Notes: generated by a model not told the origin, from the sequence alone. DNA of 64,000 nt from Desulfatiglandales bacterium (GCA_963662465.1 OY759599.1:2624001-2688000); one strand, 5' to 3'. Counted from the stretch's first letter, positions 1 to 4,994 are shown. Made by a program: numbers and translations.

Positions 1-285
1 ACTGCCGTCCATTTTAACAGCCATCTCCAGATATTTTTGAGCCCGCGCCATATCCCCATATCCGTACCAGGCTGTCCCCAGATTGTAAGCAAACGATGCA
101 TCCTCCGGGCAGAGACGGTAGGCTTTCAAAAAGAGATCCACCCCTCTTTTCTTGTCCTTTTTATAGGCTTCGGCGGCCTTTTCCGCCACATCCCGGGCAA
201 CGCCGCAGGTGTCCGCCGCCTCAACGGTCCCGGCAAACAGAACCATAAGCCCGACCCCTATCAAAACAAATGTTTTCAGCGCCAT
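1..285 (-). CDS. Secreted TPR-like protein, N-terminal part (runs off the window edge)
   Basis: Manual translation, not in ORF track: MALKTFVLIGVGLMVLFAGTVEAADTCG...AYRLCPEDASFAYNLGTAWYGYGDMARAQKYLEMAVKMDGS. Signal-peptide-like N-terminus, TPR-like YNLG..A..YL.A pattern, GGAGG RBS upstream of ATG at 285. Confidence 0.7.
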   Translation of the reverse strand, partial: MALKTFVLIGVGLMVLFAGTVEAADTCGVARDVAEKAAEAYKKDKKRGVDLFLKAYRLCPEDASFAYNLGTAWYGYGDMARAQKYLEMAVKMDGS

Positions 286-464
286 CTTATCCTTTCCTCC
301 CTGTTTACAACCGTTGGTTCCGGAAGCCCCATCCTTGTTCGCATGCTCCGCGTCCCATGGGTGTGAATTTTTCACTCGTGCATCTATCACAGTGTAAACC
401 GAAAGATAAAAGATGCCGAATTAGAGTGTTTTTATTATTGTCTTTAAACCCTTGCCGGCGTATC

Positions 465-650
465 ATGACCCCCATGAAACTCGTAAAGAGCCAACGTGAG
501 CATCTGGGTAAATATTTCTTTGACCTGTCAAAAATCGTAGCCGGCATTTATGTTTTTACGGGCCTTCCGGATAAACCCGTGCTGTTTTTATTGGGACTGG
601 TCATCGCTTTGATTTTCCTGCTTGTCGGCCTCATTCTAACAAAAGGATAA
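465..650 (+). CDS. Small membrane protein (DUF6722-like)
   Basis: MTPMKLVKSQREHLGKYFFDLSKIVAG...LFLLGLVIALIFLLVGLILTKG: two hydrophobic segments and an LGKYFFDLSK motif. The upstream extension in the ORF track is probably spurious. Confidence 0.5.
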   Translation: MTPMKLVKSQREHLGKYFFDLSKIVAGIYVFTGLPDKPVLFLLGLVIALIFLLVGLILTKG

Positions 651-654
651 TCGC

Positions 655-741
655 ATGACAGTAACATTGATTCTACTGGGCGTGGCGGTCGCCGTGCTGA
701 TATGGGCATATAAAATCACTCGGGAACCTCGGTCAGACTAA
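655..741 (+). CDS. Putative 28-aa single-pass membrane peptide
   Basis: MTVTLILLGVAVAVLIWAYKITREPRSD*, starting 4 nt after the previous stop, with AAGGA RBS. Confidence 0.4.
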   Translation: MTVTLILLGVAVAVLIWAYKITREPRSD

Positions 742-931
742 CGAAATCAGCTTATCCCGGAAGAGCCCGACTCCCCACACCCTCAAAGCGGTAAAAGCCG
801 CGCAGGGACCTTCGCGAGGCCATCCAGCCCCGCTAGCGGCCCCGACACGGAACATCACTTTTTGCCCCGCCGCAGCGAGGACGGGATTTTCTCAGGGTCA
901 GCGGGCCGGCATCCGCCAAGGCCCGGTGAGC

Positions 932-1060
932 TGAAGAAAAGGCAAGCCGAAACCCGAGGTTGTTGTTCCGGTTGCCGGGCGTGTTCCTGTTGCGATTGGC
1001 CGACCGGCAGTTCCCGGCGTTGTTGTTCCAGCCACCGCCCCGGTTCACCCGGTTCGAGCC
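932..1060 (-). repeat. DGR template repeat (TR)
   Basis: 129-nt copy of the 3' end of the 2074..3189 gene (VR 2083..2211) with 13 AAY codons (reads GSNRVNRGGGWNNNAGNCRSANRNRNTPGNRNNNLGFRLAFSS). 21 of 25 mismatches to the VR fall at TR adenines. Confidence 0.95.
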
Positions 1061-1457
1061 TTCAGAGAAAACCCGTAGTCACGAAACTTCCGAACAAATC
1101 TTTTCTTGCTTGAAGTTGCCAAGCGAATTTTTCCCGGCAGCGTCTCATAAGTATTCAGTATGCGGCGAAACAAATCAAGGAGTTCTTTGTCCTTGAAGCG
1201 CCTTCCCAGATACCGCAACAGTATTTCATGGTCGATTGAGTTGAAATATTTGGCGATATCCAGCTTCAGATACCAGTCGAAGCACCGTGAAAACCCCTGG
1301 GCCCGCTCAATGGCCTTGCGTCCTCCCTTCCCTTTTCAGCAGGCGTAGGAATCGAAAATAGCATAGGCGTCAAGGGTTTCTTCGCAAACATTCATAATGG
1401 CGTGATGCACGGGACCCGTTCCCTAATTTTATGATAAAGGTTGCCGGTCCGTTTCAT
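1045..1457 (-). pseudogene. DGR reverse transcriptase remnant (deletions, frameshift, nonsense codon)
   Basis: Manual translation: MKRTGNLYHKIRERV, frameshift, then VHHAIMNVCEETLDAYAIFDSYAC*KGKGGRKAIERAQGFSRCFDWYLKLDIAKYFNSIDHEILL...NTYETLPGK fused to IRLATSSKKRFVRKFRDY. These are DGR-RT motifs; the GLPIG and YxDD regions are missing. Confidence 0.88.
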
Positions 1458-1935
1458 CCGTCTGCTTTACGCCTTCCGGGGCATTCCGATCACCGGCCAA
1501 GATCCCCAAAACCGCATTTCCGTATTTCTTCACCCGAGCCTCCCCGACGCCTGAAATTTCCTTCAGTTCCATTTTCGATGCGACCTTTTTCGTCGCCATC
1601 TCCGCCAATTGTCCGTTGGTAAAGACAATGTAGACCGGCACGGCCTCCTTCTCGGCAACCTGCTTTCGCCAGTCCCTGAGCTTTACAAAAAGGGCAAAAT
1701 CAGCGGGCGAAAGAATTTCCCGGTAATCCACCCGCTTTCTGCCCGCGTCTTTTGGCGATGTATCGCCGTCGGACATATATTCCACGGCCATGGTCCAGAA
1801 AGAGTTTTCGCCCTGGCTCACGAATTCCCGGTGTACGGTGAGGATGCGCTGTGAGCGTAAAAAGTGATTGAGTTCCATTTCCACTTCCCGGGTTGTCTTA
1901 AGCGGGATGGTGAAGAATTTATATTGTATGGTCAT
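1429..1935 (-). CDS. HRDC-domain protein, DGR accessory gene
   Basis: LFVKLRDWRKQVAEKEAVPVYIVFTNGQLAEMA...ELKEISGVGEARVKKYG is an HRDC signature. It lies between the VR and the RT and overlaps the RT start. Confidence 0.88.
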   Translation of the reverse strand: MTIQYKFFTIPLKTTREVEMELNHFLRSQRILTVHREFVSQGENSFWTMAVEYMSDGDTSPKDAGRKRVDYREILSPADFALFVKLRDWRKQVAEKEAVPVYIVFTNGQLAEMATKKVASKMELKEISGVGEARVKKYGNAVLGILAGDRNAPEGVKQTDETDRQPLS

Positions 1936-1992
1936 TGAAAACCCCTTTATGGTTCCCGGACGGGAACATGTGCAAGCTCATTTAATCACCCA

Positions 1993-2072
1993 CGCGAGCC
2001 CCCGAGATTGTGCCGATGGAATGCTTCCGGCTTCGCACGGGCATTCCAACGGCCCAATCCCCGGGGCTCGCG
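1993..2072. other. Long imperfect inverted repeat (32-bp stem, 16-nt loop) immediately downstream of the VR; candidate DGR target-recognition hairpin
   Basis: cgcgagcccccgagattgtgccgatggaatgc (1993-2024) pairs with gcattccaacggcccaatccccggggctcgcg (2041-2072) with 4 mismatches; begins 1 nt after the target stop codon. Confidence 0.75.
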
Positions 2073-2073
2073 C

Positions 2074-3189
2074 TCACTGACCTGATGAAAAGGCAAGCCG
2101 GAACCCCAGGCCGCCGCTCCGGTCGCCGGGCGTGCCCCCGCCGCGATAGGCCGACCGGCAGAGCCCGGCGAAGTCGCCCCAGCCGCCGCCCCGGTCCACC
2201 CGGTCCGAGCCCGAAGAAGGCCCTGTAGGATCAGTCACTGAACCGGAGGGATAATCGCCGTACCAGTCCTCGCACCACTCCCAGACATTGCCGTGCAGGT
2301 CATACAAGCCCCAGTTATTGGGTTGTTTCGTTCCCACACCATGGGCATATTTATCGCCAACATCCCAGGCATTTTTGTCATACCAGGCATAACTTCCGAG
2401 CTGTCCATCGCTATCCCCGAAACAAAATTGCGTGGTTGAACCGGCTCGGCAGGCGTATTCCCATTCGGCTTCCGTCGGCAAACGATATTTGTGGGTCCCC
2501 TCTTTGCCATTCAACCTCTGAATAAACGCCTTGCAATCCTCCCACGACACATAAACAGCCGGGTTGTTCGCATTTTCCTGTACATAGTCCTTGCCCGACC
2601 ATGGCCTGCTCCCCATCACCTTCTCCCACTGCCCCTGGGTCACCTCCGTGGTCTGCATGTAATACCCTTTGGTCAGGGTCACCCGGTGCTGTTTCTCATC
2701 ATTATCCCGTCCCGACTCTCCCGATGGGCTCCCCATCATGAAACTCCCCGGCGGAATATACACAAATGCCATCCCCAGGCTGTTGGTCACTTTCCCGGCG
2801 GCCACGGGCTGCACTACGACCGGTCGCACCGGCGGCGCCACCCGCACCGCCGTAAGCCCGATATCGACATTTTCGTCCTGCTCCGCCGAAAGGGTCACCC
2901 ACCGTTTTTCCGTCTCATATCCTTCCGCAGACACCTCCACATGGTATCGCCCCGGTTCCAGTTCCATCCCCTGGTAAAAGGCCGGCCCGATGTTCAAAAT
3001 CCGCACCCGCGCATTCTCGGGCATGGTCTTCACAAACAAACGGGCAGGCTTCGGCTCAGGGAGCTTCTGCTCCCACACCGGCTCGAATTTTTCAACAAAC
3101 CATGCCCGGCCGTGGGGCGTATGGAGGAAGAGGCACCCCAGGATGCAGGCAAGACTGAAAAGGGCTTTTATCTTTGATCGTTTGGTCAT
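2074..3189 (-). CDS. DGR target protein: signal peptide, PEGA-like domain, FGE-sulfatase (CLec-fold) domain
   Basis: FGE motifs F.MGS, TEVTQGQW, P.VYVSWED, RLPTEAEWEYACRAG, N.WGLYDLHGNVWEWC.DWY, RGGGW, GFRLA. Hydrophobic N-terminus. Probable start MTKRSK at 3189 (ORF track 3255). Confidence 0.92.
   Translation of the reverse strand: MTKRSKIKALFSLACILGCLFLHTPHGRAWFVEKFEPVWEQKLPEPKPARLFVKTMPENARVRILNIGPAFYQGMELEPGRYHVEVSAEGYETEKRWVTLSAEQDENVDIGLTAVRVAPPVRPVVVQPVAAGKVTNSLGMAFVYIPPGSFMMGSPSGESGRDNDEKQHRVTLTKGYYMQTTEVTQGQWEKVMGSRPWSGKDYVQENANNPAVYVSWEDCKAFIQRLNGKEGTHKYRLPTEAEWEYACRAGSTTQFCFGDSDGQLGSYAWYDKNAWDVGDKYAHGVGTKQPNNWGLYDLHGNVWEWCEDWYGDYPSGSVTDPTGPSSGSDRVDRGGGWGDFAGLCRSAYRGGGTPGDRSGGLGFRLAFSSGQ
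2083..2211 (-). repeat. DGR variable repeat (VR)
   Basis: Encodes GSDRVDRGGGWGDFAGLCRSAYRGGGTPGDRSGGLGFRLAFSS; aligns without gaps to TR 932..1060. Confidence 0.95.
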
Positions 3190-3352
3190 TTTATACTCTT
3201 CTTTTCCAAAAAAGTTCTTGAGGGACGCGGAGCGTCCTGAAAGGTTCCTAATCAAATTACCATTTAAGTGAATATTCCAGAGGGAGTCAAGGAGAATGTC
3301 AACGGTCCGGGGCCGGTAAAGAGGTATCCGTTATTGCCGGCCTCCTCCCCGT

Positions 3353-3502
3353 TTTGAACACGATTCACAGGATTTAACACGATGAACAGGATTAGAAGAC
3401 GGAGGACAAACAAGTTCCTTCAGACCCCTACACCCTTTTGTTGGCCTTATCGCGGTCAATGGCAATCCTGTCCATCATTTAATCTTTTAAATCGTGTTCA
3501 AA
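3353..3502. repeat. ~150-bp intergenic element with inverted ends (MITE/REP-like)
   Basis: tttgaacacgatt (3353-3365) and aatcgtgttcaaa (3490-3502) form a perfect 13-bp IR, extended imperfectly inwards by acaggatt/aatcctgt units. Confidence 0.5.
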
Positions 3503-3583
3503 CATTATATGCTGAGGCTGTTGGGTACTGGATTGGGGATGAACGGAGATATGAAATGAACTGGGAGTTATTTTCGGAGAATT

Positions 3584-3962: not shown

Positions 3963-4994
3963 TTATTTCCTCCCATTTCCATCGCATCCCGGTCCCACCC
4001 AATAGCTTAACACCACCTCATTCCAGTCCGTTGCCGAATGGAGCGCCTCTAAAACCTTTTTCATGTCGCCACCCCTTGCACCGGCGTAAACCTGTTCCTC
4101 CGGGATGGGAAGAAAGGAAAAATCGATGGGTTTGCGGCTGACAATCACTTTGATGGACTCCTGGCACAATTCGTCTTCTTTCAGGGGATAAAACACCAGT
4201 TGCACATCGCCTGCCAATGCGGGCGGCGGGAACCGGAAGGTTCCCGACGGCAGGGGCTGGTCGCCCATCCTGCCGTTGGGGTAAAACAGGGAAACGGTGT
4301 AATCGGCCGCCACGCCCAGGATATACAGATGGACGCCCGGTTCCGTTTCGACGGAAATAATCGCCGGAACGCCGGGGGGATAACATGCGGGCCGTCGATC
4401 CAGCCAGGCCTTGATTTTCGGTCGGTTGAGGGATTGGGCATCCGGAGCGATGGCCTCGATACCCCGATGATAGATATTTCCCCTTTTGAGAGACGCCTGC
4501 TGTTCCCATCCCGGAGAAAGCGCCTCCCGATAAATGACCGTCCTGACCACAGTCCCATCCTTCATCCGCAGGGCCTTTATCACCAGGCGGATAGCGGGTT
4601 TTCCGCCGGAATGGGTCGGCCCGTACTCAATGGCGTATGTTCCGGTCACCACCACGTCGGCCCCGGCGTGGTCAAGGATGTTCCGGCCGCCGGACCCAAA
4701 CATCTCCATTTCATCCTGGATGACCCCCAGCTCTTTCCGGGATTTGACGACCACCCCCCGATCCGAAAGACAGGCTTCCACCCGGGTGCGAAATCGGTCG
4801 CCAAGGGCGGTGATGTCCCCCGATTTTTCTTCATGGACGGGACAAACAGCCGCGGTTTCACCCTTTCGCATTCGGTCTGCGATTTTTCCGATTTCCGTTT
4901 CGAAACCGGCCGCGAAAACAGGGGAAAGAGATGTCAAAATCACGACGACATAAAGGGCTGAAAAAAGGACGGGGATGGGTAAAGATTGTTTCAT
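3963..4994 (-). CDS. Secreted protein with FlgO-like N-terminal and DUF4384-like C-terminal domains
   Basis: Signal peptide (MKQSLP...SPVFA), GADVVVTGTY motif, and WLDR...Y.PG...HLYIL...VSLFYPN...F.FPP...ESIKVIVS pattern. AGGAG RBS before 4994. Confidence 0.65.
   Translation of the reverse strand: MKQSLPIPVLFSALYVVVILTSLSPVFAAGFETEIGKIADRMRKGETAAVCPVHEEKSGDITALGDRFRTRVEACLSDRGVVVKSRKELGVIQDEMEMFGSGGRNILDHAGADVVVTGTYAIEYGPTHSGGKPAIRLVIKALRMKDGTVVRTVIYREALSPGWEQQASLKRGNIYHRGIEAIAPDAQSLNRPKIKAWLDRRPACYPPGVPAIISVETEPGVHLYILGVAADYTVSLFYPNGRMGDQPLPSGTFRFPPPALAGDVQLVFYPLKEDELCQESIKVIVSRKPIDFSFLPIPEEQVYAGARGGDMKKVLEALHSATDWNEVVLSYWVGPGCDGNGRK

Follow-up and report, generated by a model that had tools for sequence, protein, structure and literature searches.

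A probably frozen HRDC-class diversity-generating retroelement with a deleted reverse transcriptase gene in a Desulfatiglandales bacterium

Results

Organization of the DGR1 locus

We analysed a 64,000-nt stretch of the genome of a Desulfatiglandales bacterium (GCA_963662465.1 OY759599.1:2624001-2688000), hereafter the window, which contains a diversity-generating retroelement (DGR) that we call DGR1. On the minus strand the order of its parts is target gene with variable repeat (target1, VR1), hairpin, HRDC accessory gene (HRDC1), reverse transcriptase (RT) remnant (RT1) and template repeat (TR1). A first-pass annotation had proposed this order, and it holds, except that the part it called RT is a remnant and not a gene.

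932..1060, minus strand: template repeat TR1, from alignment with VR1
1075..1457, minus strand: RT1 pseudogene, with codons ~1-11, ~81-178 and ~272-289 left, from comparison with G005, G008 and L056
1429..1935, minus strand: HRDC1 accessory gene, 168 aa, intact, with an unnamed beta-alpha-beta-beta N-domain (1-55) and an HRDC domain (80-146), from domain search and comparison
1993..2072, no strand: long imperfect inverted repeat with 32-nt arms and a 16-nt spacer, directly after VR1 and the stop codon
2074..3189, minus strand: target1 gene, 371 aa, intact, with a putative signal peptide, PEGA (51-113) and FGE-sulfatase/CLec (142-366), from Pfam, a structure model and hydropathy
2083..2211, minus strand: variable repeat VR1, codons 329-371 (the last 43 codons), with homology to 2078, from alignment

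Pairwise alignment of TR1 (932-1060) and VR1 (2083-2211) runs over 129 nt of the minus strand without gaps and contains 25 mismatches, and the homology extends further (927-1060 / 2078-2211). VR1 differs at 21 of the 29 TR1 adenines (A>G 16, A>T 4, A>C 1) and at 4 of the 100 non-A sites, all four being synonymous third-position changes (Fisher p=5.5e-14 for the adenine bias). Codon comparison shows that all 13 AAY codons of TR1 differ in VR1. These figures are identical to those first read from the sequence. The 29 A, 13 AAY codons and 15 variable codons of TR1 allow ~2e16 possible peptides; the adenines of the variable codons occupy codon positions 1-2, and VR1 forms the 3' end of the CLec-fold target. 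We rejected the alternative that TR1 is the end of a translated paralog, as a stop codon in the same frame precedes TR1 by six codons. The adenine-specific mismatches and a CLec-fold target with a C-terminal VR support the original identification of the locus as a DGR. Scanning the whole genome with the adenines treated as wild cards yielded no further TR1 target, the best other site matching 81 of 100 non-A positions (background mean 25, sd 4.8). A gene at 7.47 Mb was rejected as a TR1 target since it fits the template repeat of a second DGR (TR2, 86/92) and not TR1 (81/100).

Target1 is an FGE/CLec-fold protein, as proposed, on the combined evidence of Pfam, its closest solved relative (Treponema TvpA, 2y3c, E=3e-31) and Foldseek. 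Its structure model, a check suggested with the first-pass annotation, has a pLDDT of 88.6 and matches PvdO, TvpA and FGE, and the C-terminal stretch of TvpA aligns ungapped over the whole of VR1. In the alignment, target1 does not have the YMCH..YC cysteine pair of active formylglycine-generating enzyme, which we take to be the catalytic pair: the first Cys of the YMCH motif aligns with a variable codon, Asp in VR1. Because this Cys falls on a variable codon, we infer a binding rather than a catalytic role. The export proposed earlier is supported by a probable signal peptide on hydropathy, the N-terminus being basic and then hydrophobic in both target1 and its G007 orthologue; target1 has no clear lipobox. 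In a cluster look-up for VR alleles, target1, HRDC1 and the target of the second DGR (target2) were singletons.

The domain search bears out the HRDC accessory gene, which adjoins the RT remnant as in the catalogued architecture C, where avd is optional. None of its 25 columns conserved at >=90% is changed, so HRDC1 shows no decay. The fold of its N-domain matched only ferredoxin-like folds at Z<=5, which is uninformative. The hairpin after VR1 has a DNA fold energy of -39.2 kcal/mol (z=-8.2) and is single-copy in the genome; a related locus (L057) has an 86% identical copy in the same place. Strong post-VR hairpins (z<=-3) occur in only 11 of 61 related loci and are a non-universal DGR trait.

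DGR1 is flanked by bioBDFA on one side and xdh/minCD on the other, and no phage structural gene was found among 10 neighbouring proteins scanned, in keeping with the chromosomal, non-phage setting that had been proposed. The genome encodes dsrA, with a match over the cut-off, which supports a sulfate-reducing host; an anaerobe had been proposed. A scan for sigma-70 promoters and terminators performed no better than chance.

The surroundings hold further elements. A TPR-caspase (Peptidase_C14) gene with a signal-like N-terminus lies immediately downstream of TR1 on the same strand (window 1-390; L023:8900-10390, minus), and a small DUF6722 membrane-protein gene lies on the opposite strand just beyond the TR1 spacer (474-650). 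An exported-looking DUF4384 protein is encoded upstream of target1 on the same strand (3963-4994, minus). At 3315-3506 there is a dispersed ~190-nt palindromic repeat with dozens of genome copies, some of which form a tandem array near 1.48 Mb, while one follows TR2.

The reverse transcriptase gene is a remnant

Three internal deletions in RT1 have removed 207, 279 and 147-171 nt; their junctions are near 1424, 1129-1131 and 1074, respectively. Further lesions are a frameshifting 2-nt insertion near 1411 and an Arg-to-stop TGA at 1336-1338. In all, about 630-660 of ~1,030 nt are missing, and ~400 nt remain between HRDC1 and TR1. The 279-nt middle deletion is flanked by 9-nt direct repeats, and it takes out both GxxxSQ and YMDD (YxDD). 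An intact DGR-type RT with these two motifs is absent from DGR1 and present in same-genus relatives and in the second DGR (RT2). Because both motifs fall in the 279-nt deletion, DGR1 is a DGR remnant rather than a functional DGR, and because ~630-660 nt including YxDD are gone it cannot work alone. The first-pass annotation was right about the DGR, the HRDC gene, the target, the setting and the host; the gutting of the RT had escaped it.

Compared with relatives, the remnant has a dN/dS of 0.05-0.12, a ratio that cannot date the loss because synonymous sites are near saturation, and it keeps 23 of 25 conserved residues, the exceptions being the stop and one inherited change. On this ratio and these residues we read the RT1 loss as recent. 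All three deletions spare HRDC1 and the TR RNA, and the third stops at the first base of an RNA element, the stop-duplex strand described below; the alignment in part forces the junction to this place, because conservation itself starts at that base.

Related cassettes and recurrent RT loss

A close RT was found in 3 of 40 related genomes, all of the same genus and each within an intact target-HRDC-RT-TR cassette with few non-A TR/VR mismatches (1/99, 0/98 and 2/95). One of these genomes (G008) has also two non-adjacent VRs (1/98 and 0/98). Another same-genus genome holds a DGR RT that is more distant and comes with a TR-like repeat (G004:C3:412002-415081, L043).

A search with the HRDC protein gave 89 loci, in which HRDC is intact by choice because the search used it. 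Thirty-two were too short to judge; in the remaining 57, the RT is unbroken in 48, partial or broken in 6 and absent in 3. An FGE target lies just upstream in 55 of 57 loci with sufficient upstream DNA, and one Avd query matched none of the 89. Among 43 related TR/VR pairs, 5 have no non-A mismatch, 22 have one, 9 two, 6 three and 1 four, so that 42 of 43 fall at 0-3.

RT loss recurs among the HRDC loci. An independent cassette (L074:42-1107) retains HRDC, TR and spacer and has an RT shrunk by internal deletions, like DGR1. L052/L053 have lost RT and TR and carry instead an inverted small-gene segment like window 474-750, and in L046 the RT is cut at codon 97. An insert like window 474-750 also lies between HRDC and an intact RT in L056, and L057 has an HRDC gene with an internal deletion and a stop ahead of the RT start.

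Conserved RNA elements around the template repeat

Comparison across relatives predicts the following elements in the RNA flanking TR1.

797..852, minus strand: long stem P3, interrupted by an internal loop and capped by a hairpin, putative RT-binding element (fold, covariation)
859..882, minus strand: short stem-loop P2, then a run of A (fold, covariation)
883..895, minus strand: downstream strand of the stop duplex, with a bulged U (covariation)
898..929, minus strand: template:primer hairpin P1, with priming A 898 and first templated base C 930 both predicted
1064..1074, minus strand: upstream strand of a cPRT-Stop-like duplex at the end of the RT gene, pairing with 883-894 (covariation, cognate-duplex test)

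A five-helix model, its structure drawn from the same 30 sequences that scored it, reaches 91.8% pairing, and 32 of its 43 pairs have changes on both sides. It lies above all slid controls and was reached by 0 of 500 shuffles, a count that is not a probability because the sequences are kin. The stop duplex (1064-1074/883-894) is 97% paired, with covariation at 7 of 11 pairs. In the 41 of 48 distinct loci that have the anchor motif (the other 7 were left out), the mean duplex energy was -19.4 kcal/mol for cognate strands, compared with -12.3 for non-cognate strands and -7.1 for a control segment (0 of 5,000 permutations). Of 40 other duplexes, 37 are stronger than that of DGR1. Covariation thus points to a structured RNA flanking the TR, of the kind used for cis-priming. 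A search against Rfam returned no real family, only a single chance match (E=0.14).

By analogy with Sp A56 and TR G117 of BPP-1, priming would occur at A 898 and copying would start from 930. The template and primer strands close into a 25-34-nt hairpin in 29 of 30 sequences. This leaves little room for an Avd-binding stem-loop of its own, in agreement with the lack of avd. Compared with the VR and TR tails, the 10-base primer arm fits the VR better in 11 sequences, the TR better in 10 and both equally in 9. By a count made by eye, the hexamer that surrounds the priming A is an exact complement of the VR tail in 21 of the 30 rows and of the TR tail in none, and this complementarity could help the cDNA find its target.

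RNA decay was considered as a sign of a dead element and rejected. Three of 44 columns were changed at first; the spacer changes at 894 and 878 are common to L056, whose RT is intact, so that only one is private. This is a G>C at 836 in a near-invariant GGTA motif, whose G is kept in all 29 other rows.

Four incomplete DGRs in one genome

None of the four DGRs in the genome is complete; each has one broken core part. DGR2 (1.133 Mb; G000:C1:1132887-1134424, L021) consists of a 5'-truncated and frameshifted HRDC2, an open RT2 (334 aa, YMDD) and TR2. Its variable repeat, VR2, lies at 7.469 Mb in the 1,300-aa target2 gene (G000:C1:7465597-7469499, L022), which encodes InlB-B, Ig-like, FN3 and FGE domains and seems to have a frameshift beyond the signal peptide. 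An Rpn-transposase segment, ~96% identical between the two loci, comes after each of them and suggests duplication with differential loss. VR2 differs from TR2 at 23 of 37 A and 6 of 92 non-A positions; when polarised against relatives, four of these six differences (positions 44, 45, 63 and 118, three of them mid-repeat) are TR2-side changes absent from VR2. RT2 is 67% identical to the RT1 remnant and carries A191T, in a column that is Ala in 41 of 41 others and in RT2's closest allele.

The other two DGRs are of the Avd type. DGR3 (0.40 Mb; G000:C1:402403-410003, 591990-592129) has an Avd gene with one premature stop, an open 5xx-aa RT with an in-frame repeat-derived insertion, and three near-perfect VRs (non-A mismatches 1, 0 and 2 of 96); it may be the most recently active of the four. 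DGR4 (3.60 Mb; G000:C1:3601300-3606200) has an intact Avd gene and two VRs with 0/69 non-A mismatches, and a transposase insertion took the 3' end of its TR and the 5' end of its RT. Across the whole genome there are 47 RVT_1 matches, and most of them are group II intron RTs present in multiple copies.

Discussion

Comparison with known DGRs

Table S1 of Wu 2018 (PMC5758913) catalogues architecture C as TG-HRDC-RT-TR in Pelodictyon phaeoclathratiforme BU-1 and as TG-HRDC-RT-TR-TG in the deltaproteobacterium Desulfobacter postgatei 2ac9 and in Thiorhodococcus drewsii. DGR1 resembles the listed design in gene order, CLec1/FGE target with C-terminal VR, HRDC without avd, chromosomal location and A-to-N change, and differs from that listing in its deleted RT pseudogene, the PEGA domain of its target and its unusually long post-VR hairpin. 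With the Treponema denticola DGR and TvpA (2y3c), as described in PMC4891356, it shares an HRDC gene overlapping the RT start and an FGE-type CLec target; we also count as a likeness the remote targets, and the target remnants in core-less strains, of that system. The T. denticola order there is TG-TR-HRDC-RT, unlike that of DGR1, and the targets are lipoproteins, whereas target1 shows no clear lipobox. Like the account of Thiohalocapsa PB-PSB1 (Dore et al. 2024, PMC10907252), our genome has several DGRs, many of them broken, with remote targets; we also count as a likeness the occurrence of intact beside broken alleles within one population. That report describes one complete locus per class, whereas here none of four is complete, and target1 does not have the NACHT/vWA sensor domains described there.

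In the BPP-1 bRT-Avd-RNA structure (bioRxiv 10.1101/2023.10.23.563531), the described order is template:primer duplex, 2-3 nt, a stop duplex of 11 bp that has a bulged U, then a stem-loop followed by As, and an RT-binding stem. The HRDC-family elements follow the same order, with the stop duplex reaching to the upstream gene end. In contrast to BPP-1, the HRDC family has no avd, and its template and primer strands close in a hairpin that leaves little room for an Avd-binding stem. The conservation survey presented with that structure covers Avd-bearing DGRs only, plus five archaeal genomes. Outside subscription journals, our search gave no publication that deals with RNA structure in HRDC-only DGRs, although Table S3 and Fig. 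S18 of the same preprint may bear on it; the same search gave no paper on an orphan TR served by the RT of another cassette.

A frozen relic or a live element

DGR1 is a genuine HRDC-class, Avd-less DGR, which probably was recently fossilised and is now a frozen relic. The TR1 RNA would have folded into a priming hairpin and stop duplex, as the BPP-1 work and the intact relatives suggest, and the RT, probably aided by the HRDC protein, would have started at the 3' end of the TR and copied it, making errors at adenines. The cDNA would then have taken the place of the VR, rewriting 15 codons on the binding face of the CLec fold in an exported PEGA-FGE protein. Later the RT gene lost most of its length; VR1 probably froze on one small-residue-rich variant, and the target gene has been kept.

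Non-A mismatches favour this reading, as both DGR1 (4/100) and DGR2 (6/92) lie at or beyond the top of the 43-pair range. A T at 1034, polarised against relatives, arose in TR1 and was not passed to VR1, just as four TR2-side changes did not reach VR2. Decay elsewhere points the same way: A191T in RT2, the broken HRDC2, the apparent frameshift of target2 and the private change at 836. Against it, all deletions lie inside RT1, sparing an undecayed HRDC1 and the TR RNA, and a second VR allele is present in sample S1. Moreover, three of the four non-A mismatches of VR1 are at its 3' end, the IMH/IMH* zone in which TR/VR differences are described as normal, and the same source gives up to 11 non-A differences in presumed-active DGRs (Wu 2018, PMC5758913).

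The best-surviving alternative, which we consider unlikely, is that DGR1 is non-autonomous but live, its TR1 RNA and HRDC1 being used by the open RT2 1.5 Mb away. The losses are complementary, DGR1 having HRDC without RT and DGR2 an open RT without HRDC, while DGR3 combines an Avd stop with an open RT and DGR4 an intact Avd with a broken RT; this reciprocity within the HRDC and Avd classes suggests sharing in trans, although complementarity in two pairs is expected by chance 1 in 4. The deletions leave the RNA element whole, and L074 is independently alike, but we roughly estimate a chance of 0.07-0.13 that three deletions would spare HRDC and TR. TR1 and TR2 share a common RNA fold. A modelled RT2-HRDC1 complex (partner pLDDT >=77, at least 73% contact agreement between runs) scored 0.43 compared with 0.00 for the best control, which the tool rates as weak; of the solved pairs, 116 of 157 attained the model mark, as did 2 of the 215 mismatched ones, but at <=0.60 it was attained by only 18 of the 157 solved pairs and by both mismatches. 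The modelling thus lends weak support to RT-HRDC binding, with the HRDC protein perhaps replacing Avd. Activity of degenerate loci in trans is reported for Thiohalocapsa, but the cases described there used a remote TR too rather than an orphan TR (PMC10907252). Also against it, RT2 has left its own VR2 without four TR2-side changes, carries A191T and is just 67% identical to the RT1 remnant. We likewise assign a low probability to the specific form in which RT2 and HRDC1 jointly act on an orphan TR1 RNA that selection preserved as far as the first base of its stop duplex, a mini-DGR with HRDC in place of Avd that L074 and the DGR3/DGR4 pair would mirror.

It is less probable still, and in our view very unlikely, that this lineage is dead while intact cassettes in co-occurring cells supply VR alleles by recombination. 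Run X1 contains a second version of 2077-2290 with 23 differences (depth 10 vs 17), of which the two listed, 2147 and 2162, are both TR-adenine positions; there is no second version over 2261-2620 and 2694-3300, and public contigs end exactly at the RT1 junctions 1074 and 1129. Intact and broken alleles are described side by side in Thiohalocapsa (PMC10907252). However, the second version is known from contigs only, with 2 of its 23 differences listed, and because it also differs at 26 sites in a 266-nt HRDC record, and the ends of its bubble point to one difference at a non-A position (2107) and one beyond the VR (2260), it is probably a diverged strain and not a fresh variant. Runs X4-X7 contain 6-11% of the words, and the X4 contigs are short, diverged pieces only.

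That the RT1 lesions are assembly or sequencing errors in an intact DGR1 is scarcely credible: several DGR genes here (HRDC2, target2) do have 1-nt frameshifts typical of long-read error and no contig displayed spans a deletion junction, but the three deletions of 147-279 nt are clean, one lies between 9-nt direct repeats, and the stop codon recurs in two independent assemblies (contigs X2 record 11 and X3 record 17).

Implications for Avd-less DGRs

As a locus, DGR1 is ordinary. Its design is catalogued, and broken DGRs are known already, including truncated RTs (PMC3521204), degenerate loci with trans activity (PMC10907252) and target remnants without a core (PMC4891356). How Avd-less DGRs work is described as an open question (Wu 2018, PMC5758913). 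For this HRDC-only family, the covarying RNA model, built on about 40 relatives, gives exact and testable priming and stopping positions, and the 48 loci with an unbroken RT are material for reconstitution. A genome with four incomplete DGRs and reciprocal losses is also a natural test of whether RTs and accessory proteins are shared between cassettes. If such sharing in trans is true, the HRDC protein would stand in for Avd on an RNA without an Avd-binding stem.
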